A DNA stretch of 64,000 nt from Promethearchaeota archaeon (GTDB taxonomy: Archaea > Asgardarchaeota > Lokiarchaeia > Sigyniarchaeales > SOKP01): contig RDOA01000001.1 of the NCBI GenBank assembly GCA_011364925.1, forward strand, positions 29,997 to 93,996, in the 5' to 3' direction. Position 1 is the stretch's first letter, and the number at the start of each line of letters is the position of its first letter. Shown here piece after piece: positions 25,774 through 54,067 of this stretch. Under the pieces are notes generated by a model. It searched no databases and was not told the origin of the DNA. It worked only from the letters and a program-made list of their open reading frames with translations. The translations under genes were made by a program, and so were the position numbers.

Positions 25774-27054
25774 TCAGACATTTATATTTTCAATTACAGT
25801 TGCAACTCCTTGTCCGCCACCTACACAGGCATTTGCGACACCATATTTTGCATTCTTTTCCTTTAAAATACGAGCTAAAGTACCTGTGAGTCTCACCATC
25901 GTTGAGCCTAAAGGATGTCCTATTGCAGTAGACCCTCCTTTAATGTTAACTTTCTCCTCAGGAATGTTAAGCTTATCCATACAATTTAATGCAACGATAC
26001 AGAAAGCTTCGTTTATTTCCCAGAAATCAATCTCATCAGCTGTTAATCCTACAATCTTCAAGGCTTTTTGAGTAGCTGGTACTGGACCTCTTCCCATTAC
26101 AGTAGGATCGACCCCCGCCCATCCAATTGATAGGATCTTTGCCATAGGTTCAATCCCTCGCTTTTTGGCCTCTTCCGCTTCCATGATTACTGCTGCAGTA
26201 GCTCCTGCGTTTAAAGGCGACGAATTTCCCGCAGTTATTACTCCTTCTTCTGTTCCCTCTCGTTTCATATACCCTTCTTTACCACCATTTTTCTCTAAAT
26301 AAAAAGGAATCGATATTCGACGCAACTGGGAAACGGCTTCTAAAGTTGACTTCCTTGCATTCATGTCTCTATCAATCATCATCTTCTCATCGACATTCCC
26401 TTCAACGTGACCTTCAATGGGTATGATTTCTCCCTTGAAATACCCCTCCTCTTGACTCTTAATAGTCAAATTGTGGCTTCTCACCCCGAATTTATCTAAA
26501 TCTTCTTTTGTAAATCTAGGGACTTCTTCTTCGTATAGTTTCTGAGCAGTCTGTAGCATATTAAATGTAGTTTGTAAGTCCAATTCGGGCCGATAAAACT
26601 TACTTTCCTTGTTTTCAGTGGAATAATTACGATCTATACCAATCCCGCGAACGCGAGTCATGTGTTCAAACCCGGTGGCTAACATACACTTACTGTTACC
26701 GGTCATGATCTCCATAATTCCTACGTGCATCCCTGAGCCTGCTGAGCCGCATTGTCGATCAATGAAGAACGATGGAACTTTGTAAGGAAATCCCGCTAGG
26801 AATAAAGGACCGCGACCCCCGTAAGTCCAATTCTCTAACACTCCTGCCGCAACACCGATTGATACTTCCTCCATATCCTTTTTCTCAATTCCTTTATCAG
26901 CTAAACTCCCATCAAAAAATTTCATTAATAGTTCAGCAAGAAGTTCGTCACCCCGAATTTCACCAAACACGTCACGTTCAGGTTGGGTAGGCCTTGAACG
27001 GGAAAAAGCCGTTCGAGCATAATCAATTAACCATACTTCTTTCACACTAATCAC
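25774..27054 (-). CDS. Acetyl-CoA C-acyltransferase (thiolase), copy 1
   Basis: DRQCGS, EINEAF, GHPLGST, ACVGGGQG. Confidence 0.93.
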   Translation of the reverse strand: MISVKEVWLIDYARTAFSRSRPTQPERDVFGEIRGDELLAELLMKFFDGSLADKGIEKKDMEEVSIGVAAGVLENWTYGGRGPLFLAGFPYKVPSFFIDRQCGSAGSGMHVGIMEIMTGNSKCMLATGFEHMTRVRGIGIDRNYSTENKESKFYRPELDLQTTFNMLQTAQKLYEEEVPRFTKEDLDKFGVRSHNLTIKSQEEGYFKGEIIPIEGHVEGNVDEKMMIDRDMNARKSTLEAVSQLRRISIPFYLEKNGGKEGYMKREGTEEGVITAGNSSPLNAGATAAVIMEAEEAKKRGIEPMAKILSIGWAGVDPTVMGRGPVPATQKALKIVGLTADEIDFWEINEAFCIVALNCMDKLNIPEEKVNIKGGSTAIGHPLGSTMVRLTGTLARILKEKNAKYGVANACVGGGQGVATVIENINV

Positions 27055-27149: not shown

Positions 27150-29456
27150 CTATAGAATTCTCTTTTTTCTCATCAGATTGACGGCAATTCCGATTAAAGT
27201 TATTAATGAAGCAGATAGCATAAATCCAATTGAAAATCCTGGAATTCCTGGCACTGGAGCAGTAGGACTATACTTCACTGAATCAAAACGCAGTATCCAA
27301 TTCCAATTCCAAGCAGTGACCCAATCCTTACTTATCGCACGTCCGGTTAAATCATTTCCTAAATAGAGCATGGGATATTGATAATTCTGAGCCCAATCTG
27401 CTAATTCACTATAATATTGTTGGCGTCCAGTATCGTTTTGGAACCATAGTTTTGCTATCAGACTATCACATGTAGCGTTGTAATTAAAACCCATATTCGA
27501 TCCCGCTTTATATGGGAATGCATAAGGATAGGAATTGTAATCAGCTATGTATCTAGAATAGCCTATAAATGGAAAGGTACCAGCGGTCGGAATTCGCTCA
27601 ATAATGCCAGTGCTTTGATAATATGCTTGAATGTATCCAAGATCATTAATATCGCTGTGATAAGGTTTAAGCGCAAAACCATCGCAGGATAATAAAGGAA
27701 GTGTACCAGCCAATATTGCAGGATAGGTACCGCCTTGCGGCGTGTCGTCAGTAGCATCTATATCACACCCAATATCAGCAAGAGAGGATATCAATACAGA
27801 ATAAGATTCAAGATGGGCACCATCGTAATGATCTTCAAATGTGTAGATAGGATTGCTAACTGCTACAGCATTCCAGTCATCTGTTGTGCTAGTTAATCCA
27901 CGAGCTGCACAAATTGGACCCCAGAATGGATCATCCAGAAGCGTCTGTCGCGCTATAGTAAGATCTCTAGTTGGCAAGTTTACAGCTGGGTTATAATATT
28001 CGTGAGTCCCTGCTAATAATCCCCCAGAACGTACTACCCGACCTCCATATAATGCGATATATGCATCGTAATCAAACGCGTATGAAAGCGCTTTCCTAAA
28101 AGCACGATCAACTCCATTTGTAGGTTTTAAAGTTCCATCTGCTTCTTTAATATTAGAGGAGGATAAAATTGGGTATGTATATGGTGACCCTACGGGTTGG
28201 GACAAATTAAAACTTACATCATACCAATAACGTAAATATGTCTCATTAACGCAATTTAAAACCATAACTTCACCGTAATTTTCTTGCCCCATGTCTATAT
28301 ATTCCAAGTTAGGAGCAGCAGCTACATCACTATAACCTAAAGGTTCCCAGGAGTGATCATATGCAAAGTCAATATCCCCTGTCACTATCGCTGTTGTCCT
28401 TGCAGCATATCCTGCTGTTGAGTGACTAAAAGTGACTACTGATACACTTGGAACTTTATGCCATCCTTTAGCCTGTTGAGCTGAAGCGTTCCACCAATTG
28501 TCAAATCTTGTCATTGTACCTGTATCTATAGAAAATCCATCGAACATATAGGGTCCCGTACCGATTAAATGTCCAGGGAAAGTTAAAGGATCATCTTGTG
28601 GAAAACCTGGAACATCTCCATATCCCATTATTGGCACGTCAAAATAGTCCTTATAAGTATCCATGGAGATAAATCTCACCCACGCATTCGATAAATATTG
28701 TGGACCGGTGCCCCAATCATTAAAGAAGACTCTAACTGTTCCTCCTGATTGCTTACCATCCAATATGGTTACATTTGTAAATCGAGGGAAACGATTAATA
28801 CCATACGGTTGATCCGCTACACTGGAATATCCGAATCCAGGGTATTCATTAAGATAAGTAGTTCCTCCAAGAAAGGGCCCCCGATAATTTGTTACATCCC
28901 AGGATGCAGTTCTATAAGGATACCAATCAGCTACGCTCAACCAATAAATCGGTCTATTACCGGACACAGCGGAATCAATTGTTGCTGGACTACCCAGACA
29001 ATAATTGATACTTCCCAAGGTGTACATGAGCCTATCAAGATTCCATTTGCACACTGTGGCGTTCCAATCACTCCCATCGTGAAATAGAACGTTTTCTCTG
29101 AGAGTGATATCCATATAATCAACTCCACCGTAATTCATAAAACCTGCAGCGTTCATTTCATCTGGTCGAGAATGTATTGTCCAGTTGGTTGCAAGTACTG
29201 GTACTAAATTACTATAATCTCCGGAATCCGCACTATATGGTAAATCAAATAATCCTTCAAGAGCATTATACCTGAAATAATCACCAGTAGTAGCTCCAAA
29301 ACTTATACCATCCCAATTACCTATGGGGGCAGGTCCGCAAGCTCCTACAGTAAAAGTGGGTATCGTATTTTGCGCTTTGACACCGATGGGTATAAGCGGA
29401 AATAACATGGACATAACAAATAGAGAAAAAATTAAACTTATCGACAATTTTCTCAT
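27150..29456 (-). CDS. ABC transporter substrate-binding protein (family 5, DppA-like) with Loki-CTERM-type tail, copy 1
   Basis: Signal peptide, LVPVLATNW, LRENVLFHDGSDWNA, IGTGPY, FRKALSYAFDY; tail IPGF + hydrophobic helix + RKKR. Confidence 0.88.
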   Translation of the reverse strand: MRKLSISLIFSLFVMSMLFPLIPIGVKAQNTIPTFTVGACGPAPIGNWDGISFGATTGDYFRYNALEGLFDLPYSADSGDYSNLVPVLATNWTIHSRPDEMNAAGFMNYGGVDYMDITLRENVLFHDGSDWNATVCKWNLDRLMYTLGSINYCLGSPATIDSAVSGNRPIYWLSVADWYPYRTASWDVTNYRGPFLGGTTYLNEYPGFGYSSVADQPYGINRFPRFTNVTILDGKQSGGTVRVFFNDWGTGPQYLSNAWVRFISMDTYKDYFDVPIMGYGDVPGFPQDDPLTFPGHLIGTGPYMFDGFSIDTGTMTRFDNWWNASAQQAKGWHKVPSVSVVTFSHSTAGYAARTTAIVTGDIDFAYDHSWEPLGYSDVAAAPNLEYIDMGQENYGEVMVLNCVNETYLRYWYDVSFNLSQPVGSPYTYPILSSSNIKEADGTLKPTNGVDRAFRKALSYAFDYDAYIALYGGRVVRSGGLLAGTHEYYNPAVNLPTRDLTIARQTLLDDPFWGPICAARGLTSTTDDWNAVAVSNPIYTFEDHYDGAHLESYSVLISSLADIGCDIDATDDTPQGGTYPAILAGTLPLLSCDGFALKPYHSDINDLGYIQAYYQSTGIIERIPTAGTFPFIGYSRYIADYNSYPYAFPYKAGSNMGFNYNATCDSLIAKLWFQNDTGRQQYYSELADWAQNYQYPMLYLGNDLTGRAISKDWVTAWNWNWILRFDSVKYSPTAPVPGIPGFSIGFMLSASLITLIGIAVNLMRKKRIL

Positions 29457-29683
29457 TTTAACGATTCGCCTTATTTTTCTTTAAATTAATTTTAATTTTT
29501 TAGTAAAATTTTTGTATTAAATTAATTTACGATGTAAATTTATTTAAAGCTTGTGTAATTATATATTTAAACATTTGTGAACCTTATAACTAATGGTAAC
29601 AAAATTGTGGAATTTAGAAGGACTATACGGAAATTTGAATCGTTTAAGTTAAATTTATTATTAAAAAATCTCAATTTACGATA

Positions 29684-30223
29684 ATGTTGCAAGAAGAGGA
29701 AAATCACTCTAGAGTTGAGACTAACGAGAAAAAAGGCCATCTAAAAATAGATTTTGGGCGCCAAGGAGGTCTTGTGTTAGCGTATATTATAGTCTTGTTG
29801 GGATATTATGGTATTGTCGTCAATATCGTTATGGTTAAGGATTGGATATCTCTTACAACACAAACCTGGATATCTTTTACTGAATTGGATAGAACGATAT
29901 TATTTTGGACGTATGAGGCGTATGTAGACACATTCTTTTTACCGTTCATATTATTATTTGTTACTTGTTTTTTATTAACATATAAAGAGGAAATTCCGCA
30001 CTATGGAATAAAAGCGTCAATCTGGCTTGTTCCTTTTATAATTATTGAAGCCTTTATTTTTTATACAATCATGTTTGGTTTTAGCTTAGAGCCGATTATC
30101 TTACAATTTGGTAATTGGCAGGGATATATACATATAATCATACTATTTGCAACTACACTTTCTGGTGCCATATGTGGTATGAAAGTCAAACAATTAATTG
30201 AATCAAAAAGAAAAATTCAATAA
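29684..30223 (+). CDS. Conserved ~4-TM membrane protein leading the dpp-like operon, copy 1
   Basis: Hydrophobic segments; GRQGG, LGYYGI, RTIL.WTY, LTYKE.IPHYGI.ASIWL shared with the paralog at 55179-55715. Confidence 0.8.
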   Translation: MLQEEENHSRVETNEKKGHLKIDFGRQGGLVLAYIIVLLGYYGIVVNIVMVKDWISLTTQTWISFTELDRTILFWTYEAYVDTFFLPFILLFVTCFLLTYKEEIPHYGIKASIWLVPFIIIEAFIFYTIMFGFSLEPIILQFGNWQGYIHIIILFATTLSGAICGMKVKQLIESKRKIQ

Positions 30224-30265
30224 AAATTTTTAAAGCATCATATTATTTGAAAAAGGAGAAAGAAG

Positions 30266-31336
30266 ATGGCTAAACAACCAAAAAACATGATAAAATACAT
30301 CATTAAACGGATATTAATGATGATTCCGATGTTGTTTCTTGTTTTAACCGTTAGCTGGCTTATATCGAAAGTGATGGTTGAACTAAATTTAGTTAGCCCG
30401 GTTGCCGGTAGATTGGGTGATACACTCGATCCTGATATTATTGATGCAGAATTAAGGAGAATTGGATATTACGATCCTTGGTATATTCAACTTGCTGTAT
30501 ATTTTAAGAATTTCTTCACCGGAAACTGGGGTACTTCTTATTTAATCATCCGGGATAAACCGGTAATAGATTTTATTTCGGAAATATTTCCAAGAACAAT
30601 AGAGTTAATGATAATCCCAATAATATTAAGTCCTATTATCGCTGTTAAACTTGGGATATCATCTGCTACCCATAAAGATAAGATAAAAGATGTAGGTGTT
30701 AGAACTATTGCTATTTTAGGGGCAGGATTCCCGATCTTTTGGATTGCTGACATGCTCCAACGCATTTTTGGTTTTTACTTAAGTAACTTTACATACTCAA
30801 GCTTCGATATCCCCGCTTTTTTCGCAAATTCACCTGGATTAAAAAATCCTCCAATATCTATAACGGGATTTCGGCTTATTGATAGTATATTAGGCAATAA
30901 CCAAGTTTATTTATGGGACACAATTGTCCATTTGATCCTTCCCGCTATATGTATAACTTTTGTTTCATTGGCGAGTATGACAAGGCAAACGCGATCCAGT
31001 ATGTTGGATGTTTTAAATCAAGATTATATTAGAACCGCTCGAGCTAAAGGTGTTTTAGAACACGATGTCATAAATAATCACGCTATTCGTAACGCTTTGT
31101 TGCCTGTTAGTAATCTTATCGTAGGGGGTACAGCAACAGCGTTATTAGGTTCTTTTTTTATCGAAGTAACTTTTAATTATAAAGGTTATGGTTATTACAT
31201 GGTTAGTTCTATATTAACAGGAGATTACCTCGTTACCCTTGGGCTCTTAGTTTTTGCTACAATAATAATCCTATCAGGGACATTAATCGCAGATGTTTTA
31301 TATACTATAATTGACCCTAGAATTGTTTATAGATAA
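30266..31336 (+). CDS. dppB: Peptide/nickel-type ABC permease DppB, copy 1
   Basis: YIIKRIL, GNWGTS, FPRTIEL, RSSMLDVLNQDYIRTARAKG, DPRI. Confidence 0.92.
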   Translation: MAKQPKNMIKYIIKRILMMIPMLFLVLTVSWLISKVMVELNLVSPVAGRLGDTLDPDIIDAELRRIGYYDPWYIQLAVYFKNFFTGNWGTSYLIIRDKPVIDFISEIFPRTIELMIIPIILSPIIAVKLGISSATHKDKIKDVGVRTIAILGAGFPIFWIADMLQRIFGFYLSNFTYSSFDIPAFFANSPGLKNPPISITGFRLIDSILGNNQVYLWDTIVHLILPAICITFVSLASMTRQTRSSMLDVLNQDYIRTARAKGVLEHDVINNHAIRNALLPVSNLIVGGTATALLGSFFIEVTFNYKGYGYYMVSSILTGDYLVTLGLLVFATIIILSGTLIADVLYTIIDPRIVYR

Positions 31337-31348
31337 GAAGGTGTTAAA

Positions 31349-32344
31349 ATGCTGGTTAAACAAAAATATATAGGAAAAGCTGAAAAACAAGCTCAAATAT
31401 CAAAAAAGCTAAAGTTTTTTCGTTATTTAAAGTTCTATTTAATTCCTGGATGGCGGGATCCCGAATTTTCCGCGCAAGAATATGAGATTGAAAAAATAAA
31501 ATCTAAAAGGAGATTGTTTCGGCACCTTCTTAAACCCCTTACAATGATAGGATTAATAATGATTTTATTTATTTTTGTGTTAGCTATATTTGCACCTATC
31601 CTTACTATATATCCATTACAAGGCTTAGTAGTACCAAATTACCCCCCTAATCCAGATCCTTTTGCTCTCCCATCGGTGGAACATCCCTTAGGGACAACGT
31701 ATCATGGATTTGATGTTTTAGCCAGAATTATTTGGGGAGCTAGAACTACAATTTTGTCGTCGTTAATCCCCGTAACAATATCTATAGGTGGAGGCCTTAT
31801 TATAGGCATTATTTCTGCTTATTTCGGTGGGGTTGTTGACTATCTCATCATGCGCTTTGTAGATTTATTCTACGCTTTTCCAACATTGATACTCGTTATC
31901 ATAGTTACACCACTATTTGGTCAAGATTTATTTAGCATTCTTATTATCTACGGACTTCTATTTATACCATATAATATTCGGTTCATGCGATCACTTGTTT
32001 TCCAAGTAAAGCAGCTTGAATACGTTCAAGCAGCGAAAGTGGGTGGTGCATCACGGTTTATAGTAATGTTTAAACACATATTACCAAACGCAATATCACC
32101 AATGTTAGTATCTTTTTTTGGAGGTGCTGCAGTTGCAATTATAGGTTTAGCAGGCCTTGCATTTATCGGATTTGCAGATGATAGTGTCGCAAGCTGGGGT
32201 ATTGATATTTTATGGGCTCGAGGAAAGTATACTAATATTAGCGCTGCTATTTTACCGGGAGTGTTTATTGGAATTGCTGCCATCGGCTTTATACTTCTTG
32301 GAGATGGATTTCGCGATGCGTTAGATCCACGATTAAAATTATAA
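31349..32344 (+). CDS. dppC: Peptide/nickel-type ABC permease DppC with conserved N-terminal extension, copy 1
   Basis: HPLGT..G.DVLARIIWGAR, EYVQAA, KHILPN, GDGFRDALDPR. Confidence 0.92.
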   Translation: MLVKQKYIGKAEKQAQISKKLKFFRYLKFYLIPGWRDPEFSAQEYEIEKIKSKRRLFRHLLKPLTMIGLIMILFIFVLAIFAPILTIYPLQGLVVPNYPPNPDPFALPSVEHPLGTTYHGFDVLARIIWGARTTILSSLIPVTISIGGGLIIGIISAYFGGVVDYLIMRFVDLFYAFPTLILVIIVTPLFGQDLFSILIIYGLLFIPYNIRFMRSLVFQVKQLEYVQAAKVGGASRFIVMFKHILPNAISPMLVSFFGGAAVAIIGLAGLAFIGFADDSVASWGIDILWARGKYTNISAAILPGVFIGIAAIGFILLGDGFRDALDPRLKL

Positions 32345-32354
32345 AAAAGAGGGA

Positions 32355-34331
32355 TTGAAAGTTTTAAATACATTATATCAGACTGTCTTTGGATTAAATT
32401 ACGGAAAAGCATTAATTGAAGCAATTATACTTGTTATTGTTTTATATTTAATTTTAAACTTCATTAATAATCAAATTCCTGAGGATCAACAACTTTTAAA
32501 GAAAGTATTTAAGAGAAGGTCAGCAATAATTTGTTTTGCCATATTATTACCGATTATCATTGGCGTTAAATCTATCTTTGAAACCTTATGGGTTTTTAAT
32601 TCCACATTTTTGGCGTTCAATAATAATGCTGTCTCGTTCGCAATTATAACTACTCTCTTTTACTTCTTCTCCAAAATACTACTATTAAACGATAAGAGAA
32701 TTAGAGCTTCAAGGGAGGTGCATTTAAAGAACCCATTTATCAAAATATTTAAGATATTTATTGTAATAACTTGGATAATTGCCATAATATTTATTTCAAT
32801 TCCTCTCTTAGGACTTGAAAGGCTTGAAGGGGAACATCCGGTATTAGTGGATATATTTTACCTTGGATTTATATGGGCGGGTTTTACTGTCGGATGTAAT
32901 ACACTTCTCACAATTCTAATTAATAGAATTATTCCAATTAAGTACCGGATTCCTAAGAGACCTTTAAAATATTCCATGTTTGCTGGTGGACTAATCTCAT
33001 TTGGAATTTGGTCAATCCAATTAATTATCGTTGAATTATATTTGAAAAGATTATTTGGAATAACGATCTATAATCAAGACATTAGGATATTAATTTTTGT
33101 TGTTAGCCAACTTTATGGCATCATATTTTACATATCGTGGGATAAGAGATTCATGCCAAAAGCTAAAGAAAGAAGTACTTTAAAACTCCAGAGAGCGTTA
33201 GAATTGGTTGAAGAACAATCCTTAGAAAGTTCTAAATTAACTGGCAATCAGATTATTCTTGATGTAAAAGACCTCACTACGTATTTTTATACAGAAGAGG
33301 GTGTAGTGCGTGCAGTAGAAGATGTTTCTTTTAAAATATATGAAGGTGAAGTTCTTGGTCTTGTAGGCGAAACCGGTTGTGGAAAATCTGTTACCGCATT
33401 ATCGATCGTTCAACTAATTCGTCCTCCAGGAAAAAGAATAAAAGGGAATATCATTTTTAGCGGAGAAGATTTATCTTTAAAATCTGAATCAGAAATGTTG
33501 AAATATCGTGGAAAAGACATTACAATGATTTTTCAAGACCCGCTTAATTCGCTCAATCCAGTTTTTAAAGTAGGTAAACAAATTTCTGAAGTATTTTTAC
33601 TACATATGGAAAACGAAATGCTGGTCGAGACTTCTAAATTTCCTAATAAGAGTTTATATAGCGTTGCTCAGGAATGGAGTATCGCTCTTTTAAAAGATTT
33701 AAATATCCCCTTCCCTGGAATAATTTTTGATAGATATCCCCACGAACTAAGCGGTGGGATGCGACAAAGAGTTCAGATTGCAATGGCATTGGCATGTAGA
33801 CCTAAATTACTAATCGCAGATGAACCGACTACCGCTTTAGATGTTACAATCCAAAATCAAATTCTTAAACTGATGAAAGAACTTCGCAAGAAATACAACA
33901 CTAGTATTTTATATATCACCCACGATTTAGGTCTTATCTCTAAAATGTGTAATCGTGTTGCTGTTATGTACAGTGGATCAATTGTCGAATATGGAGATAT
34001 AAAAAGATTATTAACTAATCCCTATCACCCATATACCCGAGGACTTATTGCTTCTGTTCCAGTAATTGAAAAACAAAAACCAAGGCTAGAAGTTATACCG
34101 GGAACGGTCCCAAATTTAATTTATCCGCCATCGGGATGTAGATTTCATCCTAGATGCAAATATTGTTTCGAACCATGTGATTCAGTAGTTCCAAAACAAA
34201 ATGAGGTTGATAAAGATTATTTTGTAGCGTGTCATCTCTATAATCCAGAATATAAACGTTTAGCAGAAATTTCTATAAAGAATGTAGAAGAACCAAACAC
34301 ATATGCAAATAAAAATGAGGTTATGTCGTAA
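32355..34331 (+). CDS. dppD: DppD-type ABC ATPase fused to a ~300-aa N-terminal polytopic membrane domain, copy 1
   Basis: GETGCGKS, LSGGMRQR, IADEPTTALD, HPYT and a Cys-rich tail; residues 1-~270 hydrophobic multi-TM. Confidence 0.9.
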   Translation: MKVLNTLYQTVFGLNYGKALIEAIILVIVLYLILNFINNQIPEDQQLLKKVFKRRSAIICFAILLPIIIGVKSIFETLWVFNSTFLAFNNNAVSFAIITTLFYFFSKILLLNDKRIRASREVHLKNPFIKIFKIFIVITWIIAIIFISIPLLGLERLEGEHPVLVDIFYLGFIWAGFTVGCNTLLTILINRIIPIKYRIPKRPLKYSMFAGGLISFGIWSIQLIIVELYLKRLFGITIYNQDIRILIFVVSQLYGIIFYISWDKRFMPKAKERSTLKLQRALELVEEQSLESSKLTGNQIILDVKDLTTYFYTEEGVVRAVEDVSFKIYEGEVLGLVGETGCGKSVTALSIVQLIRPPGKRIKGNIIFSGEDLSLKSESEMLKYRGKDITMIFQDPLNSLNPVFKVGKQISEVFLLHMENEMLVETSKFPNKSLYSVAQEWSIALLKDLNIPFPGIIFDRYPHELSGGMRQRVQIAMALACRPKLLIADEPTTALDVTIQNQILKLMKELRKKYNTSILYITHDLGLISKMCNRVAVMYSGSIVEYGDIKRLLTNPYHPYTRGLIASVPVIEKQKPRLEVIPGTVPNLIYPPSGCRFHPRCKYCFEPCDSVVPKQNEVDKDYFVACHLYNPEYKRLAEISIKNVEEPNTYANKNEVMS

Positions 34332-34386
34332 TTATGTCTTTCTTAATTAAAATTGTCAATTATTTCAATAAAGTGGGGGAGAAACT

Positions 34387-35685
34387 ATGATTTTTCAACT
34401 GGAAATTATAACATTATTAGTCGCAAAATACATATTTTTTTTTCCTGTAGCTTTTATTATTTCAATCTTTATTATTAGTTGGGATCCACGATCCCAATTA
34501 GTGAGATTAAGGTTCCGTTTATACCTAATATCAGCGTTTAATAGTAATCTTTTTATTTTTATCCCTTTAGGAACAAGTTTCTTAGGAAACATTTGGATGT
34601 ATATAATTATCTACGTATTAATAGCAGCGATTGTTAGTTTTGTTGTTAAACTTATTACGTATAAAATAGTTGGAATTGAAAAATTTGGTCAAATTAAAAC
34701 TCTTGAAAGAAGCAAGAATTTGCTTGAAGTTAAAAATCTTAAGGTGCATTATCCACTTGTAGGGGGAATTTTAAAAAGAAAAATAGGAGCAGTTAAAGCA
34801 GTTGATGGTGTGTCGTTTGATGTAGAGTTTGGGGAAACTCTTGGATTAGTAGGAGAGAGTGGGTGTGGAAAAACAACCATAGCAAAAGCTATATTAGGTT
34901 TACTTGAAAAAACCGAAGGAGAAATAATTTTTCAAGAAAAGGTAATTCCTCGCAAGTTTTCACCTTATTTAAGACAAAAGATTCAAATGATTTTCCAAGA
35001 CCCTGACGCCTCCCTGAATCCCCGTAAAAAAGTTGTTGATATTATAGCCGATCCTCTGAAAAATTTACTTGGTATAACTAATGAAATAGAAATCAGAAAA
35101 AGGGTTTTAGAGTTGTTAGACCAAGTATCGTTAAAGCGAGAACATCTGGATCGTTATCCTCACGAGTTTTCAGGCGGACAAAAGCAAAGAATTGTCATAG
35201 CTAGAGCATTAGCATGCAATCCGGGGTTGATAATTTTAGACGAACCTACTTCTGCTCTTGACGTATCAGTACAAGCGCAAATTCTTAACCTACTTAAAGA
35301 TTTACAGATTGAATATGGCTATGGATTTTTGTTTATTACCCATAATTTAGCTGTGGTCTCCCATGTAGCAGATCGCGTAGCTGTTATGTATCTTGGTAAA
35401 TTTGTGGAAGTTGGAAGTAAAAATCAAATCTTTTCGAATCCAACTCATCCTTACACTAAAGCTCTCCTCGCTTCGCGCAGTACAATCGATCCTTACAACC
35501 AAGAAATCAAATTTGTTATAAAAGGTGAAGTTCCAAGCCCTATTGCTCCACCACCAGGATGCACTTATAATCCACGCTGTGTTTCTGAATTTCGTACAAA
35601 AGATTGTGAATTAAACCTTCCTCATAAGATTAAAATCGACGAAGGTCACTTTATATGGTGTAATAATCCACCAACCTCTAAGTAG
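34387..35685 (+). CDS. dppF: DppF-type ABC ATPase fused to a ~110-aa N-terminal membrane domain, copy 1
   Basis: GESGCGKT, FSGGQKQR, LDEPTSALD, HPYT and a Cys tail; about three hydrophobic segments at the N-terminus. Confidence 0.9.
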   Translation: MIFQLEIITLLVAKYIFFFPVAFIISIFIISWDPRSQLVRLRFRLYLISAFNSNLFIFIPLGTSFLGNIWMYIIIYVLIAAIVSFVVKLITYKIVGIEKFGQIKTLERSKNLLEVKNLKVHYPLVGGILKRKIGAVKAVDGVSFDVEFGETLGLVGESGCGKTTIAKAILGLLEKTEGEIIFQEKVIPRKFSPYLRQKIQMIFQDPDASLNPRKKVVDIIADPLKNLLGITNEIEIRKRVLELLDQVSLKREHLDRYPHEFSGGQKQRIVIARALACNPGLIILDEPTSALDVSVQAQILNLLKDLQIEYGYGFLFITHNLAVVSHVADRVAVMYLGKFVEVGSKNQIFSNPTHPYTKALLASRSTIDPYNQEIKFVIKGEVPSPIAPPPGCTYNPRCVSEFRTKDCELNLPHKIKIDEGHFIWCNNPPTSK

Positions 35686-35846: not shown

Positions 35847-38294
35847 ATGGTTGTTCAAGATTTGAAAATGACTCCTCTTCAAGGAATCCCTTCAGAGCGA
35901 GTTAGAAAGATTAGAGATAGAATGCTCTCTATGCCAAGAGAACTTGATCTTGAGCGTGCTCGGTGTTATACGAGAATATACAAACAAATGGAAGATGCTC
36001 CGCCCTGCATGAAAAATGTGAAAGCATTAGAGGAATTTTTACGGTGTCTTCCAATCAGAATTGATGAAGACGAGCTTCTTGTAGGCGTAAAATCTAGTAA
36101 AATCAGAGCTGATCCAATTGAAATAGAACGTGGAATGCGGTCTAAACTTTTAGGTCTAGTCGTGAGCGAATCTATAAATAAACAAGTAAAAGATATGATT
36201 ATTTCAAAAATCTCATTTATTAATCGGTATGTTCCTTTAACAGAAGAAGAACAAGATGAGTTGAGGAATGAGATTCTACCCTTCTGGAAGGGAAGAACTG
36301 TCGCAGATCGAAAGGAAGAAGCCTATAAAGAGGCAGGTTTATATATGCAACAGAAGGGACCTTTGCCCTCAATGCTCCTCGTTAGTTTTGGGAGCGGTAC
36401 TGATATGTTTGCTGGTGCTATGGGTCAAGGACATGTCGTTCCAGGCTATAGACGAGTACTCAAAATGGGCTTTAGAGGTATCGAAAAGATGGCGAAAGAA
36501 GGGCTTGCAAAACTTAAGGAATCGGACGAAAAATTTGACCAACGCAAGGACTTTTATGAATCAGTCATAGTAGCTGCAAACGCCGTCTGTGATTATTCCA
36601 ATCGATACGCTGATCTCGCAATGGAAATGGCAAAAACTGCTTCAGAAACAAGAAAGGCAGAGCTTTTAGATATAGCAGAAAGAATTCGAAGAGTGCCGGC
36701 TTATCCTCCAAGGAGCTTTATGGAAGCACTTCAATCAGTTTGGATGACCAATGTCGTTATGGAAATGAGTTATGGTGAAGGAAACATATTCTCTCAAGGA
36801 CGCGTAGACCAATATCTTTATCCATTTTACGAAGCTGATTTGGCAGAGGGTCGGATTACTTACGAGGAAGCTGTAGAAGCAATTGAGGAATATTTAGTTA
36901 AACTTTCTTCTGTCGTTATAGCTGGACAGAACAATATAACTATCGGAGGATTAGATCATGATGGAAGTGATGCCACGAATGATGTTTCCTATATGTTTCT
37001 TGAAGCTATTTCAAATGTAAAAAGCTTATTAAACACATTATCGATAAGAATTTCTTCCAAGAGTCCCCGTGATTTTTTGAAAAGAACTCTTGAAGCTTTT
37101 AAATATACAGCCGGAATGGGAATTCATAACGATGAGGTGTTAGTGCCACAACTTCACGATACGGGATATTCGTTAGAAGATGCCCGAGATTATTCAATCG
37201 TCGGTTGTGTAGAACCACATGGTACGGGGAACGACTTCTCTTATACTGCAGGTAATGCCGTCCAGATTTCAATTCTTCTTAATATGGCATTAAATGAAGG
37301 GCGTACGATTCTTTCAGGAAAAGAAACCATGGGAGCAAAAACACCCCCAGCCAGTACTTTTAAAACTTTTGAAGATGTGAAGAACGCGTTTGTAGACCAA
37401 CTTAAATTTGCTATAGACCTAACTGTAAGAAAGGCTGAGATAAAAGATAAAACATTTGCTAAGTACTTACCTTCTCCGTTGCTTTCTTCTTCAATAGAAG
37501 GATGTCTCGAAAGCGGAATGGACGCAACTCGAAACGGTGCTAAATATAATAATAACCCAATGGGCTCACAAGGGCTTGGTACTGTGGTAGATTCATTAGC
37601 AGCAATACGTTGGGCAGTATTTGAAGAGAAATTAGTAACCATGGAAGAATTGGTTAACCATATGAATAATAATTTCAAGGGAGCCGAAGAACTTCGCGAA
37701 AAATTACGAAATAAATCACCCAAATATGGAAATGGTGATGAAAGAACCGATGAACTAGGGAGATGGGTAGCAAGTACTTTATGCGATATCACAAGAAAAT
37801 ATAAAGCGAGAGGCGGTGATGGCATATATCATAATTGCCTTGTATCTTCTGGAACTCAGGTTATAGAGGGTAAATCATTAGGTGCAACTGCAGATGGAAG
37901 ATTGAAAGGTGAACCCGTAGCGAACGGTATCTCTCCTTCAAATGGCACTGAAAAGAATGGTCTTACCATGACACTCAAATCCGTAGCTTATGCGACAGCT
38001 GATCCTCATCTAACAAACGGAGCATCATTTAATATTAGACTTAATCCGAGTATACTACAAACTGACGAAGGACTCGATCAATTTACTTCTATAGTAGAAG
38101 CGTATTTAGATTTAGGCGGTCGAGAGCTTCAAATAAATCCAATAAGCTCAGAAACCCTTAGAGACGCGCAAGCTCATCCCGAAAATTATCCCGACTTATC
38201 CGTTAAAGTGACAGGTTACTCTGCCAGATTTATAGATCTAACAAAAGAGCTTCAGGACGATATTATAGCAAGAACAGTATTCAACGAATTATAA
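35847..38294 (+). CDS. Glycyl radical enzyme, eliminase/dehydratase-like, substrate unknown
   Basis: Cys loop YSIVGCVEP, Gly loop VKVTGYSARF, GRVDQYLYPFY, PKYGN, ATADGR. Confidence 0.9.
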   Translation: MVVQDLKMTPLQGIPSERVRKIRDRMLSMPRELDLERARCYTRIYKQMEDAPPCMKNVKALEEFLRCLPIRIDEDELLVGVKSSKIRADPIEIERGMRSKLLGLVVSESINKQVKDMIISKISFINRYVPLTEEEQDELRNEILPFWKGRTVADRKEEAYKEAGLYMQQKGPLPSMLLVSFGSGTDMFAGAMGQGHVVPGYRRVLKMGFRGIEKMAKEGLAKLKESDEKFDQRKDFYESVIVAANAVCDYSNRYADLAMEMAKTASETRKAELLDIAERIRRVPAYPPRSFMEALQSVWMTNVVMEMSYGEGNIFSQGRVDQYLYPFYEADLAEGRITYEEAVEAIEEYLVKLSSVVIAGQNNITIGGLDHDGSDATNDVSYMFLEAISNVKSLLNTLSIRISSKSPRDFLKRTLEAFKYTAGMGIHNDEVLVPQLHDTGYSLEDARDYSIVGCVEPHGTGNDFSYTAGNAVQISILLNMALNEGRTILSGKETMGAKTPPASTFKTFEDVKNAFVDQLKFAIDLTVRKAEIKDKTFAKYLPSPLLSSSIEGCLESGMDATRNGAKYNNNPMGSQGLGTVVDSLAAIRWAVFEEKLVTMEELVNHMNNNFKGAEELREKLRNKSPKYGNGDERTDELGRWVASTLCDITRKYKARGGDGIYHNCLVSSGTQVIEGKSLGATADGRLKGEPVANGISPSNGTEKNGLTMTLKSVAYATADPHLTNGASFNIRLNPSILQTDEGLDQFTSIVEAYLDLGGRELQINPISSETLRDAQAHPENYPDLSVKVTGYSARFIDLTKELQDDIIARTVFNEL

Positions 38295-38427: not shown

Positions 38428-39372
38428 TTATCGAGTTAAACCTGACCACTTAACATTAGTAACGCCTGTTCCTTTAGCAATTTCAACAAAATGTTCCATC
38501 TCCTCCTTTGTCATTAATGGCTCATCTTTTAAAGACCATGACATATCTAATTGTGTATATTTAATATCACAGAGTTTATTAAAGCTCAATAAATCCCATT
38601 TATCCGGGATATTATCTAATTCATTTACAATGAATTCTCCGATTCCTTGAACATTCTCTTCCGTGGCAGTATAGTTTGGAATTAACGGTGTCCTTATCCA
38701 CATAATTTTCTTATTTTCCTGGATATATTTGGACATCCATATAGCATTTTCCAAGATTGCTTTATTTGAAACGCCTGTGAATTGTTTGTGCTTTTCAGGA
38801 TCAATCTCTTTAATATCTAACAACACGATATCAAGGTAGGGTAATAATTCTTGATAGACTTTTTTACTTGAAATTCCGCACGTATCTAAAGCCGTAGTAA
38901 TACCATTTTCCTTGCATAATTTCAAGATTTTCAAGAGAAAATCCGGTTGTAAAGTAGGTTCACCACCAGAAACGGTGATGCCTCCTTTTGCTTTATCAAA
39001 AAATATCTTTTCTTTTTCTATTTCGTGAAAAAGCTCTTTTACATCCCACCATTTTCCATACATGCTTAATGCCGTACTAGGACAAGCTTCCACGCAATCT
39101 CCACAACTAGTACATCGTTCTCTATTAATGTGTAATCCGTCATCTTCAAAAGTCAAGACGTCCTCTTGACAAGCATCTATACAACTATCACATTTAATAC
39201 ATTTACGTTCTGTCCAATAAAGTTGAGGTTTTTTTGGAATTGATTCGGGATTGTGACACCAGACGCAATTTAACAGACAATTATTAAAAAAAATTGTTGT
39301 ACGCACGCCAGGGCCATCGTCAGTGGCCATTCTTTCTATTTTGAAGATTAATCCTCGAGTTGTTGCTTCTAT
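38428..39372 (-). CDS. Glycyl-radical activating enzyme (radical SAM with 2x[4Fe-4S] insert); probable ATA start at 39372 (first ATG at 39330)
   Basis: DGPGVRT, CLLNCVWCHNPES, two CxxCxxCxxxC motifs, SGGEP. The family motif GLIFKIER lies in frame upstream of the ATG. Confidence 0.9.
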   Translation of the reverse strand: MEATTRGLIFKIERMATDDGPGVRTTIFFNNCLLNCVWCHNPESIPKKPQLYWTERKCIKCDSCIDACQEDVLTFEDDGLHINRERCTSCGDCVEACPSTALSMYGKWWDVKELFHEIEKEKIFFDKAKGGITVSGGEPTLQPDFLLKILKLCKENGITTALDTCGISSKKVYQELLPYLDIVLLDIKEIDPEKHKQFTGVSNKAILENAIWMSKYIQENKKIMWIRTPLIPNYTATEENVQGIGEFIVNELDNIPDKWDLLSFNKLCDIKYTQLDMSWSLKDEPLMTKEEMEHFVEIAKGTGVTNVKWSGLTR

Positions 39373-39502: not shown

Positions 39503-41386
39503 CTAAGATATTATTTCTAATTCTTTCAATTTTTCCTCAGTTGGTCTTCCAGTTTCCCAATCCCATCCGCGAATATTATAATATTTCTTCAAATTATCTT
39601 CTAAATCGAGTTTTACATTTTTTAATCTTCCTGATGATAATACTTTCATATTGTGATTGGGTAATCTATCGTCTTTCCTTGAAATTCCTAAATTGCAGCT
39701 AATTAACCGTTTCAAATTATTTATTCGTTCTCCAACCTTCATCAGCGATTTTCGATCGTAATTAAAACCTGTAGCAGCGTTTATATAGCCAAGAATATGT
39801 TCGAATTTGGGGGTTGCAAAATTGCAATTTACTGCCGAATCATCAATAGCCCTAAGGTCTTGAAGATTTACTACACCTTTTTCTCTTCCTGAGGCATCAA
39901 ATCTGTCTTTACTTCTTTTAATGTGGAGAATTCTATCGTTAATTGTTCCTGCTTCCGCTGAATACCAATCGCATTTGTTATGGTTTGCTCCAACGCATCC
40001 AGTCATATAACTTAATGCTTGACCGGCAAACGCTCTAGGTTCATGCATAGGGATTTCTAAACCTTTTACGTGTGCTGCTAATTCAGGATCAACTTCAAAT
40101 TTCAAAGCCATAGCTCTCACGCCTTCTGCAAGAACATCACCGATACCTTCTCGCTGGCTTATTTTTTCAATAAGTTTGCAGACTAGTTCTCCATTTCCCC
40201 ACTTAATATCTTCTACAGGGATTTCGTCCAAAAATTCCTTTATTCTGTTGATTCCTAAACTATTTTCTACTAAATAAGTTAGAAACGCAATTGAGACTCC
40301 ACAAGAAATAGTATCGACGCCAAATTTATTACAAAGATGATTTGCGAGAACTACTGGTTTTGAATCAAAAACTCCACATAAACTACCTAATGCAGCAACA
40401 GATTCATATTCTGGTCCATCGCTTTCAATTTCAATTTCCCCTGTGTTAATGACAGTTGATTTACCGCACTTTATCGTACAACCTGCGCACCCGTAACTGA
40501 ACATGGGATATTCTTCTCTCAGAGTTTTTCCTGTTAAATTCTCGGCAATAAACTCCGTTTCTGTAAAGTAATACCCAGGAGTATCACCATTAACCATCCC
40601 TAGATCGAGATACATATTAGTACCATATAAATTAAAAAGTAGGGATCCTACTTCTCCCATCGGGTTTGCTTCCCTTTCAAGTTGTGCTTGTTTTCTTAAT
40701 GTTTTCCCTAGTTCGTTATCTGCGAGATCAATCTTTTCTTTTCCATGGACTACTAAAGCTTTTAGATTCTTCGAACCCATAAGAGCTCCTAACCCACACC
40801 TACCAACTACTCTCCCTTCATCGTTCAATATAACGCTATATTTAACGAGGTTTTCTCCCCCTGGACCAATACAAGCTATCCGAGTGTTTGGAGCATTTAA
40901 TTCATCTTTAATTAGTTTTTGAGTTTCGTAGCAATCTTTACCCTGAAGTTCTGAAGCATCTTTAAACTCTATTTTTCCATCATGGATATATAAATAACTT
41001 AATTTGTTTAATTTTCCGAAGAGAACAACAGCATCAAATCCACTATTTCTTAAAGCAATGCAAAACAAACCTCCCGAAGAACCTTCACCCCAGATACCCG
41101 TTAAAGGTGATATTCCGCTCACAGTATAACGACCCGAATTGGGGCGAATAGTGCCTGTAATTGGACCAGTAGCAAATATTAAAGGATTAATTTCTGAGTA
41201 AGGATTTCCTCTTAATTTATTGTAATCTTCTTCTGAAAGTAGATCGTACGTTAATTTAGCGCTTAATCCCGTTCCTCCTAAATATTTTTGCGCAGTTTCA
41301 GGACTTAAATCTTTCACTTCAGAAGTTTCTCTGCTTAAATCCACATAAAGGACTTTTCCATTATAACCGTATAATTTATCATTCAT
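39503..41386 (-). CDS. aor: Tungsten aldehyde:ferredoxin oxidoreductase family
   Basis: GYNGKVLYVDLS, SPLTG, IGPGGE, GR.GLGALMGSKNLKA, CAGCTIKC, GPEYE, DTIS, VKGLE, RGWD. Confidence 0.92.
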   Translation of the reverse strand: MNDKLYGYNGKVLYVDLSRETSEVKDLSPETAQKYLGGTGLSAKLTYDLLSEEDYNKLRGNPYSEINPLIFATGPITGTIRPNSGRYTVSGISPLTGIWGEGSSGGLFCIALRNSGFDAVVLFGKLNKLSYLYIHDGKIEFKDASELQGKDCYETQKLIKDELNAPNTRIACIGPGGENLVKYSVILNDEGRVVGRCGLGALMGSKNLKALVVHGKEKIDLADNELGKTLRKQAQLEREANPMGEVGSLLFNLYGTNMYLDLGMVNGDTPGYYFTETEFIAENLTGKTLREEYPMFSYGCAGCTIKCGKSTVINTGEIEIESDGPEYESVAALGSLCGVFDSKPVVLANHLCNKFGVDTISCGVSIAFLTYLVENSLGINRIKEFLDEIPVEDIKWGNGELVCKLIEKISQREGIGDVLAEGVRAMALKFEVDPELAAHVKGLEIPMHEPRAFAGQALSYMTGCVGANHNKCDWYSAEAGTINDRILHIKRSKDRFDASGREKGVVNLQDLRAIDDSAVNCNFATPKFEHILGYINAATGFNYDRKSLMKVGERINNLKRLISCNLGISRKDDRLPNHNMKVLSSGRLKNVKLDLEDNLKKYYNIRGWDWETGRPTEEKLKELEIIS

Positions 41387-43741: not shown

Positions 43742-44773
43742 ATGTTTGGAGGAAGAAAACCACAGTACCGATTTAAAACTTATAAATCCGATGCAGCACC
43801 CTTTTTCTTCTTTATCGATATCTTTCCGCTTGATCTTAACCTTTTTGATACTCCTCACTCATTAGCGTTAGCTAAGCATATTAAAAACAATCCAATAATG
43901 CCTTTACCAATGAGAATTGATCGCGTTTACAACGGAGTAAGTTCGATCCTTATTCGACCTAATTCTCCAGTATCATTTCCCTTGAACGAATCGATTGTAG
44001 CTTTAGTTAATCCGGTTCCCTTTCTCCAATTGGGAATTGAGAATTTGCTTTTTTTTACAGAAATTCGATCTCAACAACGATTGTTACGCTCCGTTAGGAA
44101 AGAAAAAGTTAAGGAATGGTGGGAAAATACACGACACCTTTATGGCAATCTACACCAGGTCGAAGAAGATTTTGCTGCTTTTCTAAAAGCATATTTATAT
44201 ACTATAGTTAATGCAAAAATCAATGAAGAGGATATTACAGGTGCTGCTTTAGAATATTGTGAAATTGTTAATAATATTTGTAAACAGAGAATGCTTAAAA
44301 ATAAGATTTTAGTGGAGATCAAAAATGCTCAAAAGCATGTAAAACTATATCGAGAAAAAACAGCCAAAAGGAGAGAAAAGCTAACTATAGTCAAAAAACT
44401 CGAATATCACCCAGATCTCATCGATATTGAAGTATTTAATTTTTCAGATACTGGTTTTCCAAAGCAGATGGATTTTAAAAATTCTAATTTGAAAAACTAT
44501 GGAAGTATTGTAGCGAAGTATATTCCATTGCTATTATATGATGATTTACAGGAATGTATGCTACAAAATATGAAATTACTTGAAACGAATGAAATTTCGT
44601 TATTAAATCCATCATTTCTTTTGGAAAATAATGTTATTATTCTTTTAAGCTCAGAAAAAGCAGAAGATAGTGATTTGAACAAATATATATGGTTATCGGA
44701 TTTAAATGAAGTAGATATTGAAGGAATTTTAAATTCCATAACTCAATCTTTAATCTCTATAAGTAATATCTAG
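43742..44773 (+). CDS. Hypothetical protein
   Basis: 343-codon ORF filling the gap; no motif recognised. Confidence 0.7.
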   Translation: MFGGRKPQYRFKTYKSDAAPFFFFIDIFPLDLNLFDTPHSLALAKHIKNNPIMPLPMRIDRVYNGVSSILIRPNSPVSFPLNESIVALVNPVPFLQLGIENLLFFTEIRSQQRLLRSVRKEKVKEWWENTRHLYGNLHQVEEDFAAFLKAYLYTIVNAKINEEDITGAALEYCEIVNNICKQRMLKNKILVEIKNAQKHVKLYREKTAKRREKLTIVKKLEYHPDLIDIEVFNFSDTGFPKQMDFKNSNLKNYGSIVAKYIPLLLYDDLQECMLQNMKLLETNEISLLNPSFLLENNVIILLSSEKAEDSDLNKYIWLSDLNEVDIEGILNSITQSLISISNI

Positions 44774-44943: not shown

Positions 44944-44976
44944 ATAGACTAAGTATGTTTAATACATACTGTCTAT
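44944..44976. promoter_or_regulatory. Palindromic operator candidate upstream of SBP copy 2
   Basis: AGTATGT-TTAAT-ACATACT flanked by ATAGAC/GTCTAT; 24 of 27 nt shared with 48607-48633. Confidence 0.6.
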
Positions 44977-47296: not shown

Positions 47297-48550
47297 CTAA
47301 ATGGGAACTATACGTATTTCATTGACAGGATATTTATTAAAATTTTCATAACCATTGTGTGTAAAGACACCTGAGGAACCTACCCAAAGAGCTTTTTTTG
47401 TATTAGGAATCCTAACCCATATATGTAAAGTAACCGTGTTACCCGGTTTAAACTCAAAATTTTGATACAATTGTGCCCATGCTGCGCTATTAGTACCGGG
47501 TGTTGCCCCTGCTACCGGTGGTTGCATCATAAAACACCAACCAGCAATTAATATACTTGGTACTTGCTCAAGACCAGCGTCATAAATTGGCTTAAGAAAC
47601 TGATCTATATCTTTTCCTTTCATTCCAGGCTTTAGTTCAGAAACCATATTATCATGAACCATAGCTGCAACATTGAACATTTTTTCATATTCAGGTGTTG
47701 GATTACCAACAAACCAAGTTCCCCAGAGCTTTCCCCAATAATTACCGTATCCTAAACAAAATTCGGACATTAGAAAATCACCTACTTTCACTCGTTTTCC
47801 TGTTGAATAAGGCGTAGGATAAAAGTAATCAGGATTTTCCATTGAAAAGGAACTGACATGACCGAACGGAAATGTTCCATAATGGCGAACTGCTGTCAAA
47901 TTCATTGCTCGTTGTAAGTCTTTGTGTTTTATTCCGGGACGGGTTAATTGAAAAACCTCTTCTTGAGCCAGATCCGTTAAAGCTCCTGCCCTTCTAAGGA
48001 GCGCTATTTCTTCTTCGCTTTTAATAAGTTGTAGATCCTGCAACCAAGGATTAGCGCTGACAATTTTTGCATCCGGAAAGTTTTTATCTATAAGCTGACG
48101 TTGTTCAGTGAATAAGGTGATATCACCATATTGAGCTCCTCCAGGACCAACAAGTCCAATCGTTCCTTTTTCGTATCCAAGATCTTTGATTTTTTGAATT
48201 GCATTTGATAATGGTTCTCCATCTTTTATATCTTTCACGTAGGAAATGGTAGCCGCGTTTACGCAATGATAATCTAAATTAATAAACATTGTAGGTTCGC
48301 CTTCTACTGGAACAGTAAGATATGTTTCAAAAACATTTGCGAAACGGGTAAGATACTGGAGGTGTATCTGACCAGGACTATTTCCTATCCCCACATGCCC
48401 ATAAACTAAAAGTACATCTATTCCTCTTTCCTTCATCTCCTTTCGAACATATTTGTAGCGTTGAGCCATTTCTTTATCTGAAAAATATGGAAGAAAGTTA
48501 TTATCAGCGTCTTCAGGTATTACATCATAAATTTCTTTACTCATTTTCAT
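47297..48550 (-). CDS. M24 (Xaa-Pro peptidase/creatinase) fold protein lacking canonical metal ligands
   Basis: Creatinase_N-like N-terminus, IKSEEEIALLRRA, GD...F.G.P, KPG.K, FKPG.TVT. Confidence 0.8.
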   Translation of the reverse strand: MKMSKEIYDVIPEDADNNFLPYFSDKEMAQRYKYVRKEMKERGIDVLLVYGHVGIGNSPGQIHLQYLTRFANVFETYLTVPVEGEPTMFINLDYHCVNAATISYVKDIKDGEPLSNAIQKIKDLGYEKGTIGLVGPGGAQYGDITLFTEQRQLIDKNFPDAKIVSANPWLQDLQLIKSEEEIALLRRAGALTDLAQEEVFQLTRPGIKHKDLQRAMNLTAVRHYGTFPFGHVSSFSMENPDYFYPTPYSTGKRVKVGDFLMSEFCLGYGNYWGKLWGTWFVGNPTPEYEKMFNVAAMVHDNMVSELKPGMKGKDIDQFLKPIYDAGLEQVPSILIAGWCFMMQPPVAGATPGTNSAAWAQLYQNFEFKPGNTVTLHIWVRIPNTKKALWVGSSGVFTHNGYENFNKYPVNEIRIVPI

Positions 48551-48606: not shown

Positions 48607-48633
48607 ATATACAGTATGCATTAAACATATTTA
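48607..48633 (-). promoter_or_regulatory. Operator candidate upstream of the M24-fold gene
   Basis: Minus strand TAAATATGTTTAATGCATACTGTATAT versus TAAGTATGTTTAATACATACTGTCTAT at 44950-44976. Confidence 0.6.
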
Positions 48634-50055: not shown

Positions 50056-50082
50056 ACTCGTTCACTCTATTCTATTTCTTTT

Positions 50083-53025: not shown

Positions 53026-53058
53026 AGAATTAATCCTTTTTTAACGTATTTTTATTTT

Positions 53059-54054: not shown

Positions 54055-54067
54055 GCTCTATAAATCA

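Follow-up and report, generated by a model that had tools for sequence, protein, structure and literature searches.

A conserved Lokiarchaeial variant of the Opp/Dpp importer family with membrane domains fused to both ATPases

In the textbook picture, the ATPases of type I ABC importers are soluble. The DppABCDF and OppABCDF systems of Escherichia coli and the OppABCD system of Mycobacterium tuberculosis (TC 3.A.1.5; structures 8z1v, 8z21, and 8j5q; PMC12136057) combine a family-5 solute-binding protein (SBP), two BPD_transp_1 permeases, and two ATPases that carry ABC_tran and oligo_HPY domains with a four-cysteine motif, encoded in the order B-C-D-F. We examined a 64,000-nucleotide (nt) window of Promethearchaeota archaeon DNA (Lokiarchaeia; Sigyniarchaeales; SOKP01; assembly GCA_011364925.1, contig RDOA01000001.1, positions 29,997-93,996; GC content 33-40% by base composition) that encodes an importer with all of these features and, presumably, the same transport mechanism. 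Unlike the E. coli and M. tuberculosis systems, its ATPases bear N-terminal membrane domains, which across the relatives described below number 7 or ~14 helices on DppD and 3-7 on DppF. A four-helix membrane protein (4TM) is encoded before DppB, and the SBPs are 710-840 aa in length, end in a Loki-CTERM anchor, and are too diverged in sequence to indicate a ligand. The system is real and conserved, and within an established transporter family it forms a variant confined to its own lineage.

The original prediction called this importer new, which overstates the case because TCDB already lists a Lokiarchaeum system with membrane-spanning ATPase components. Entry 3.A.1.5.45, from Lokiarchaeum sp. 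GC14_75, comprises five consecutive genes (KKK40959-KKK40963) with 2, 6, 6, 14, and 8 transmembrane segments (TMSs), the last two values belonging to the ATPases (Table S1, PMC7997004). The text of that survey of Asgard transporters from the Saier laboratory does not comment on the TMS-bearing ATPases, and literature searches for membrane-fused Opp/Dpp ATPases, 3.A.1.5.45, and Loki-CTERM retrieved no discussion of the architecture. Component lengths of 3.A.1.5.45, inferred from coverage fractions, are ~830, 354, 329, 1008, and 584 aa, compared with 818, 354, 336, 1008, and 585 aa at one related locus in our data set (L049); the protein cluster P0126 is likewise 1008 aa. By TMS counts and lengths, rather than by sequence, the entry matches the operons whose DppD carries two membrane modules, including the second importer copy in the window (copy 2). 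TCDB catalogues the entry as a peptide importer of five components, the 4TM protein not among them, and the first copy in the window (copy 1) represents the single-module form. A heimdallarchaeial entry, TC 3.A.1.5.46 (OLS22413-16), is also an Asgard importer of the PepT family with an enlarged membrane sector, although there the extra helices reside on the permeases (13 and 15 TMSs) and here on the ATPases. Enlargement of the Opp membrane sector thus appears to recur in Asgard archaea, the two cases being likened by TMS counts. New here are the TCDB precedent, a wider spread of the 4TM protein, a link between SBP anchoring and ATPase fusion, a variable DppF domain, a link to a glycyl radical enzyme (GRE), and a lack of support for lipid cargo.

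Copy 1 (27150-35685) consists of six long open reading frames (ORFs), all at the coordinates given in the original prediction. The minus strand encodes the 768-aa SBP1 (27150-29456; PF00496, SBP_bac_5, E 2.2e-20). Divergent from it, the plus strand encodes proteins of 179, 356, 331, 658, and 432 aa separated by gaps of 10-55 nt. The operon is headed by 4TM1 (29684-30223), which has four helices by hydropathy and no Pfam or NCBIfam match, followed by a DppB/OppB-type permease (30266-31336; PF00528, BPD_transp_1, E 1.5e-31) and a DppC/OppC-type permease (31349-32344; PF00528, E 1.9e-27, plus OppC_N). In DppD, a 7-helix membrane domain of no recognized family (aa 1-290; 32355-33224) precedes a nucleotide-binding domain (NBD) that includes an oligo_HPY tail as well as the motif C-x5-C-x6-C-x17-C (33255-34331; ABC_tran and oligo_HPY at aa 322-608 of 658). 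DppF begins with a shorter membrane domain of ~3 transmembrane (TM) helices (aa 1-115, the hydrophobic segments falling within aa 1-98; 34387-34731) and continues into an NBD with an oligo_HPY tail and four cysteines (34732-35685; ABC_tran E 2.5e-35, oligo_HPY E 2.9e-15, aa 140-399 of 432). Hydropathy, together with an AlphaFold2 (AF2) model in the case of DppD, agrees with the claim that both ATPases carry multi-TM sequence at their N termini.

Sequence comparison places the system in the PepT (Opp/Dpp) family, TC 3.A.1.5, among the type I ABC importers that depend on a binding protein, on the strength of Pfam and NCBIfam matches to the five core proteins, the nearest ATPases, and the cysteine spacing. 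All four permeases of the two copies matched PF00528 (E 1e-27 to 1e-31), with OppC_N recognized in DppC of copy 1, and all four ATPases matched PF00005 and PF08352 above cut-off. The NCBIfam OppD, DppD, and DppF models were the best matches to the ATPases, at scores below their equivalog cut-offs, and copy-1 DppF matched the DppF/OppF models. Among solved structures, the nearest to the DppD NBD are OppD of M. tuberculosis (8j5q, E 1e-109) and DppD/OppD of E. coli. Cysteines C595, C601, C608, and C626 of DppD are invariant in 49 sequences and align with those of M. tuberculosis OppD; their spacing is identical to that of the [4Fe-4S] ligands of E. coli DppD, Cys284/290/297/315 (PMC12136057). 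The DppF tail has a similar four-cysteine arrangement, and both tails are predicted to hold a cluster site of the [4Fe-4S] type. The original description of an Opp/Dpp-type importer from Lokiarchaeia whose membrane sector is enlarged is upheld.

Several lines of evidence indicate that the fusions are real: continuous reading frames, ribosome-binding sites, conservation that begins at the N terminus, purifying selection, gene order in 21 loci, and the occurrence of the fused form in 211 protein clusters. Frames are open, with no stop between N-domain and NBD, in all of the more than 60 genomic copies. Calculated from base composition, the chance of a 300-codon open frame in 33% GC DNA is ~1e-10. 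Shine-Dalgarno (SD)-like motifs precede the upstream starts, namely GAGGG before the TTG of DppD (32355) and GGGGGAG before the ATG of DppF (34387). Conservation of the DppD N-domain starts at residue 2 in an alignment of 23 sequences, and pairwise ratios of nonsynonymous to synonymous substitution (dN/dS) of 0.24-0.47 for this domain, against 0.08-0.19 for the NBD, indicate a translated domain under constraint whose sequence changes more quickly than that of the NBD. The departures are thus not assembly artefacts, as the original prediction had argued. Start-like in-frame codons do occur near the junctions (in DppD, an ATG at aa 267 and a TTG at aa 284; in DppF, a TTG at aa 112); no SD-like motif was evident before them, and an additional soluble ATPase product from internal starts may exist alongside the fusion.

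The fused architecture is widespread within its lineage. A search with aa 1-300 of DppD alone returned 211 protein clusters, their sources labelled as Promethearchaeota and other Asgard bins, nearly all 620-670 aa long with ABC_tran and oligo_HPY. Of 400 genomes from the phylum, 43-44 carry the N-domain, most of them in the window's own family (39 of 134); the former count is a lower bound because diverged versions need a local profile search. One such version, from Ca. Harpocratesius repetitus of another family, matched local profiles at E 3e-6 (D) and E 4e-15 (F). Open frames in these genomes give ~625-685 aa for single-module DppD and ~976-1103 aa for the double-module form, which is present in at least 14 genomes. 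Among 1.84 billion representative proteins, the N-domain profile found 62 matches, of which the full-length ones were 630-1008 aa and the others fragment-like; in this lineage, the domain was always attached to an ATPase.

We took 20 loci from around DppD homologues for analysis of synteny. Those of sufficient length were all alike in encoding a divergent SBP, B, C, D with the N-domain, and F with an N-terminal extension, and the gene order is shared in 21 related loci that span several genera and extend into a second family. The 4TM gene is present in most; in four loci no corresponding ORF of at least 90 aa was found, and in two it is relocated. DppF is 560-590 aa in most relatives and carries a ~240-aa domain of 6-7 helices, of which the window's 3-TM version is the C-terminal half. 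B, C, and the NBDs stay constant across loci while the additions to F (3 versus 6-7 TM helices) and D (one versus two modules) vary. At locus L044 (G130:C106, 4532-6852), DppF appears as a frame of 669 aa with ~11 hydrophobic segments, and the end of the NBD falls in a distinct 104-aa frame after it; either the F domain is enlarged still further and a frameshift interrupts the gene, or the gene is broken.

The AF2 model of the DppD N-domain (predicted local distance difference test [pLDDT] 76; predicted TM-score [pTM] 0.67) contains seven long helices spanning aa 16-289, in keeping with ~7 hydrophobic segments at aa 10-263, and a single helix (aa 243-289, or to 293) joins TM7 to the NBD. Aligned down to 32% identity, the 23 N-domains share 13 invariant residues and a conserved block, GGLISFGIWSIQLIIFELYL-RLFG-x-EQDIR. 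When the positive-inside rule is applied to the modeled helices, the loops rich in lysine and arginine (aa ~48-55, 112-126, 193-205, and after 265) would be cytoplasmic, giving a predicted N-out/C-in topology with the NBD in the cytoplasm. The invariant polar residues E76, E227, Y229, Q241, D242, and R244 would then face outward, located where TM2 and TM6 end on that side and within the TM6-7 loop.

This domain matched no family in the databases searched, and no relative was detected outside these ATPases. The N-domains of DppD and DppF and 4TM1 matched nothing in Pfam or NCBIfam. A hidden Markov model profile of the 23 DppD N-domains reached a best E of 0.06 against PDB sequences, and Foldseek with the AF2 model returned a best E of 0.41 (7-TM receptor rows, TM-score ~0.2) with no exporter chain among its rows. 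The best Z of 7.9 from VIA-align equals the background for helical bundles; these null fold searches do not establish a new fold. ESM Atlas offered no usable match to the DppD N-domain and, for the 4TM query, only its own cluster. Comparison of the DppD N-domain, DppF N-domain, and 4TM profiles with each other by hhalign revealed no relation. The DppD N-terminal domain, for which the original prediction had proposed such fold and profile checks, thus matches no described Pfam, NCBIfam, or PDB family.

Copy 2 lies on the minus strand (48751-55721) and has the same gene order: 4TM2 (55179-55721; recognized by similarity to 4TM1), DppB2 (54068-55138; PF00528 and BPD_transp_1_N), DppC2 (53059-54054; PF00528), DppD2 (50083-53025; 980 aa, assigned by Pfam, hydropathy, and alignment), and DppF2 (48751-50055; 434 aa with a short TM N-domain and a Pfam-assigned ATPase). 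SBP2 is encoded separately on the plus strand (45022-47154; 710 aa; PF00496 E 9.2e-25) and has a Loki-CTERM tail. The repetition of every departure in copy 2 is confirmed, with 65% identity between the full-length DppF proteins, membrane part included, and 62% between the 4TM proteins. The first 7-TM module of DppD2 (aa 1-316) is 30% identical to the DppD N-domain of copy 1. The copy-2 fusion was correctly recognized, although the ~640 aa before its NBD form two membrane modules, not a single stretch. The second hydrophobic region (aa ~340-600) aligns in part with aa 130-262 of copy-1 DppD and is a mosaic, one part resembling helices 4-6 of the D domain and another the N-terminal half of the long domain on DppF (BLAST E down to 6e-11 against relatives). 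This mosaic suggests, at the sequence level, that membrane segments have been exchanged between the two ATPase genes.

Of the additions, the 4TM protein shows the strongest conservation: across 15 orthologues, 35 alignment columns are invariant, among them those of GRQG and LTYKE-I-HYGI-AS-W. The family occurs in 100 of 400 genomes and comprises at least 568 clusters, all labelled "hypothetical." Diverged members also head operons with soluble ATPases, so that the gene leading the operon was rightly noted but is not specific to the fused form. One of these is the third Opp operon of the same genome (contig C47, locus L053, 2512-10200), which encodes, in this order, an SBP of 589 aa that lacks the C-terminal anchor, a protein of 281 aa, one resembling 4TM, B, C, and D and F in soluble form; it offers a natural within-organism comparison for the fused-ATPase operons. 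The extra N-terminal motif of DppC (KFYLIPGWRDPEFS..E.EIEKIKSKRR), described as cytoplasmic, fared similarly: it is real and conserved, but related soluble-ATPase operons share it in a diverged form. In 4TM2, the conserved N-terminal part and first helix (WGRQGGVILGYVIILLGYYGI; ...FKVNWGRQGGVILGYVIILLGYYGI; window 55566-55721) lie upstream of the only ATG, and no in-frame ATG, GTG, or TTG occurs between the preceding TGA and the conserved first helix. ATA and ATT codons directly follow that stop; initiation may therefore be non-canonical, or this copy may be produced without helix 1.

Large, C-terminally anchored binding proteins are a known archaeal feature. The oversized, anchored SBP of the original prediction was accurately observed, but its tail is the NCBIfam Loki-CTERM type, ordinary in archaea, and is not a novelty. 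SBP1 has TM segments at aa 3-28 (signal or anchor) and 737-763; its tail, PGIPGFS-hydrophobic-KKR, is of the Loki-CTERM type by eye and absent from the NF033507 matches at E <= 0.001. SBP2 matches NF033507 with 21.1 bits (cut-off 19.9). An IPG[YF]S-hydrophobic-K/R tail is present in 14 of 14 SBPs of fused operons and in 0 of 3 SBPs of soluble-ATPase operons, a suggestive link between the anchored SBP and the enlarged membrane sector. Against characterized families, the SBPs yielded short local matches to NikA, GsiB, and CntA models and one weak PDB match. A family-5 SBP of the cultured relative P. syntrophicum (DSAG12_03090), likened to the present ones by family, is the most abundant and most glycosylated protein of that organism (PMC11284389).

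Immediately downstream of copy-1 DppF is a gene for a GRE of the PFL2/glycerol-dehydratase eliminase class (35847-38294, plus strand; PFL-like E 4e-162 plus Gly_radical; Cys loop SIVGCVEP), followed on the minus strand by genes for a GRE activase (38428-39330) and an aldehyde:ferredoxin oxidoreductase (AOR; 39503-41386), both of which recur beside the importer-GRE pair in close relatives. In 10 of 20 loci, the gene immediately after DppF encodes this GRE (69-96% identity); the loci concerned are those with the single-module DppD nearest to copy 1. The GRE is often tandem-duplicated (loci L033-L044), with activase and AOR also nearby. Its scores fall far short of every equivalog cut-off in NCBIfam (sulfopropanediol dehydratase, 496/1000; hydroxyproline dehydratase, 490/1100; choline lyase, 475/1050). 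Given the position of the GRE in half of the loci, with activase and AOR nearby, the copy-1 cargo is probably the GRE substrate or its precursor and not necessarily an ordinary peptide. The GRE neighbor invoked by the original prediction is thus conserved, and a non-standard cargo stays possible.

From these observations we propose a PepT-family importer with accessory membrane modules that anchor or scaffold its ATPases, the cargo of copy 1 being linked to the GRE; we put the probability of this statement as a whole at roughly 0.55. The surface-tethered family-5 SBP with its Loki-CTERM tail would pass cargo to the DppB/DppC heterodimer, which would form the translocation path, and the DppD/DppF heterodimer would drive transport by ATP hydrolysis. 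The DppD and DppF N-domains and 4TM would be accessory modules flanking the B/C core, holding the ATPases permanently at the membrane and enlarging an outer-face platform where the large, C-terminally anchored SBP docks, rather than providing a second substrate path. In copy 1, the imported cargo would serve as the substrate, or substrate precursor, of the adjacent GRE eliminase. Translocation through B/C is favored because these permeases are complete and the core machine resembles solved Opp/Dpp systems. An accessory role for the additions is favored by the lack of homology among them, the lack of a transporter fold match, the occurrence of the DppD N-domain in this lineage only with an ATPase, and their variable size next to constant B, C, and NBDs. 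The outer-face platform is argued from the invariant polar residues at that face and the anchor found on every SBP of the fused operons.

Several considerations weigh against this proposal. The position of the extra domains beside B/C and the SBP is putative, and the AF2 model of full-length DppD, built from a 49-sequence alignment, is too poor for domain contacts (pLDDT 58.6). The strongly conserved intramembrane polar positions W219, Q222, T186, and N190 could likewise belong to a site for a ligand or an ion, in keeping with a sensor or transport function. The 4TM protein, accompanying soluble ATPases as well, is not tied to the fused domains, and the correlation between anchor and fusion comes from one clade and is confounded by shared ancestry, hence not independent evidence. 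The SBPs are, by sequence, too diverged for ligand prediction. Adjacency of the GRE is no proof of a common substrate, and copy 2 has no GRE but an M24 hydrolase, which fits peptide-like cargo although it is not conserved in the other loci examined.

Foremost among the alternatives, the N-domains could be regulatory sensors of a ligand, an ion, or the state of the membrane that control ATP hydrolysis by way of the long helix to the NBD, playing from within the membrane the part that C-terminal regulatory domains play in MetN, ModC, or MalK. The invariant polar and aromatic residues within the helices (T186, N190, W219, Q222, E227, and Y229), the one rigid helix linking TM7 to the NBD, and the placement of the domain always on the ATPase and never on a permease would all suit such a role. 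We nevertheless regard it as rather unlikely, since there is no similarity to any sensor fold (the 7-TM receptor rows from Foldseek are at background, E 0.4 or worse) and since shrinkage of the F domain from 6-7 to 3 helices and doubling of the D domain would be unusual for a tuned sensor. ABC exporter half-transporters have an N-terminal transmembrane domain followed by an NBD in one chain. The fused ATPases share this domain order, as well as the pairing of two different chains; together with conserved charged residues in or at the ends of helices, this raises the prospect of a bifunctional machine in which the DppD and DppF N-domains, perhaps with 4TM, form a second path on the same ATPases for export of a GRE-pathway product or for ions. 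That reading is improbable and ranks below both scaffolding and sensing: the NBDs are of the importer type with oligo_HPY, complete permeases with coupling regions are present, fold and profile searches revealed no exporter transmembrane domain, and the D and F membrane domains are unrelated to each other and unequal in size (7 and only 3 helices here).

Two further explanations can be weighed against results already given. Lipid-like substrates for the neighboring beta-oxidation genes, a cargo suggested by the original prediction, would account for the thiolase paralogues (25774-27054 and 55937-57214; 77% identical) that flank both copies, in different relative positions, and for the 3-hydroxyacyl-CoA dehydrogenase (3HCDH) near copy 2. 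This seems very unlikely and was not upheld, because homologues of thiolase, 3HCDH, MBL, or NMO lie near the operon in 0 of 24 related loci; the known cargoes of the PepT family are, moreover, hydrophilic (peptides, opines, nickel, and oligosaccharides; PMC7997004). Least credible of all is that the fusions are only apparent, with soluble ATPases made from the start-like codons near the DppD and DppF junctions and the upstream frame a separate product, a relic, or an annotation artefact. A relic would have gained stops in 33% GC DNA, yet none separates the domains in any copy; SD-like motifs favor the upstream starts; and invariant motifs persist under purifying selection down to 32% identity.

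The known architectures of type I importers would be extended by a conserved design that embeds both ATPases in the membrane and adds a subunit. Lokiarchaeia, in which membrane-fused importer operons are multi-copy, are thought to live on imported organic matter, and the fused design could show how a tethered SBP stays at its translocator in a cell with no periplasm. We advance only tentatively the stronger idea that the DppD and DppF N-domains and 4TM form a distinct ring around DppB/DppC that captures the SBP anchor or senses an external or membrane signal, coupled to ATP hydrolysis, and thereby defines a new type I importer subclass dedicated to feeding the GRE pathway. If true, this would place a new structural subclass in the archaeal lineage closest to eukaryotes. 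The conserved importer-GRE link provides a concrete route to both the cargo and the GRE substrate.

The surroundings of copy 2 include two further genes. The M24-family hydrolase (prolidase/creatinase type; Peptidase_M24 E 1.6e-17 plus Creatinase_N) is encoded on the minus strand downstream of DppF2 (47297-48550). A near-palindrome, AGTATGTTTAATACATACT, lies upstream of SBP2 (44952-44970), and a copy with two mismatches lies upstream of the M24 gene (48613-48631; 0.03 chance matches expected); none was found in the intergenic region of copy 1. Upstream of SBP2 on the plus strand is a gene for a conserved 343-aa protein (43742-44773) with no Pfam, NCBIfam, or PDB match. Its homologues adjoin SBPs at four loci (L040, L041, L047, and L052), and distant homologues of 281-285 aa lie between the SBP and 4TM in the soluble-ATPase operons L053 and L056. 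Judged by this recurrence, the 343-aa soluble protein may belong to the system as an additional conserved component, or it may have a regulatory role.

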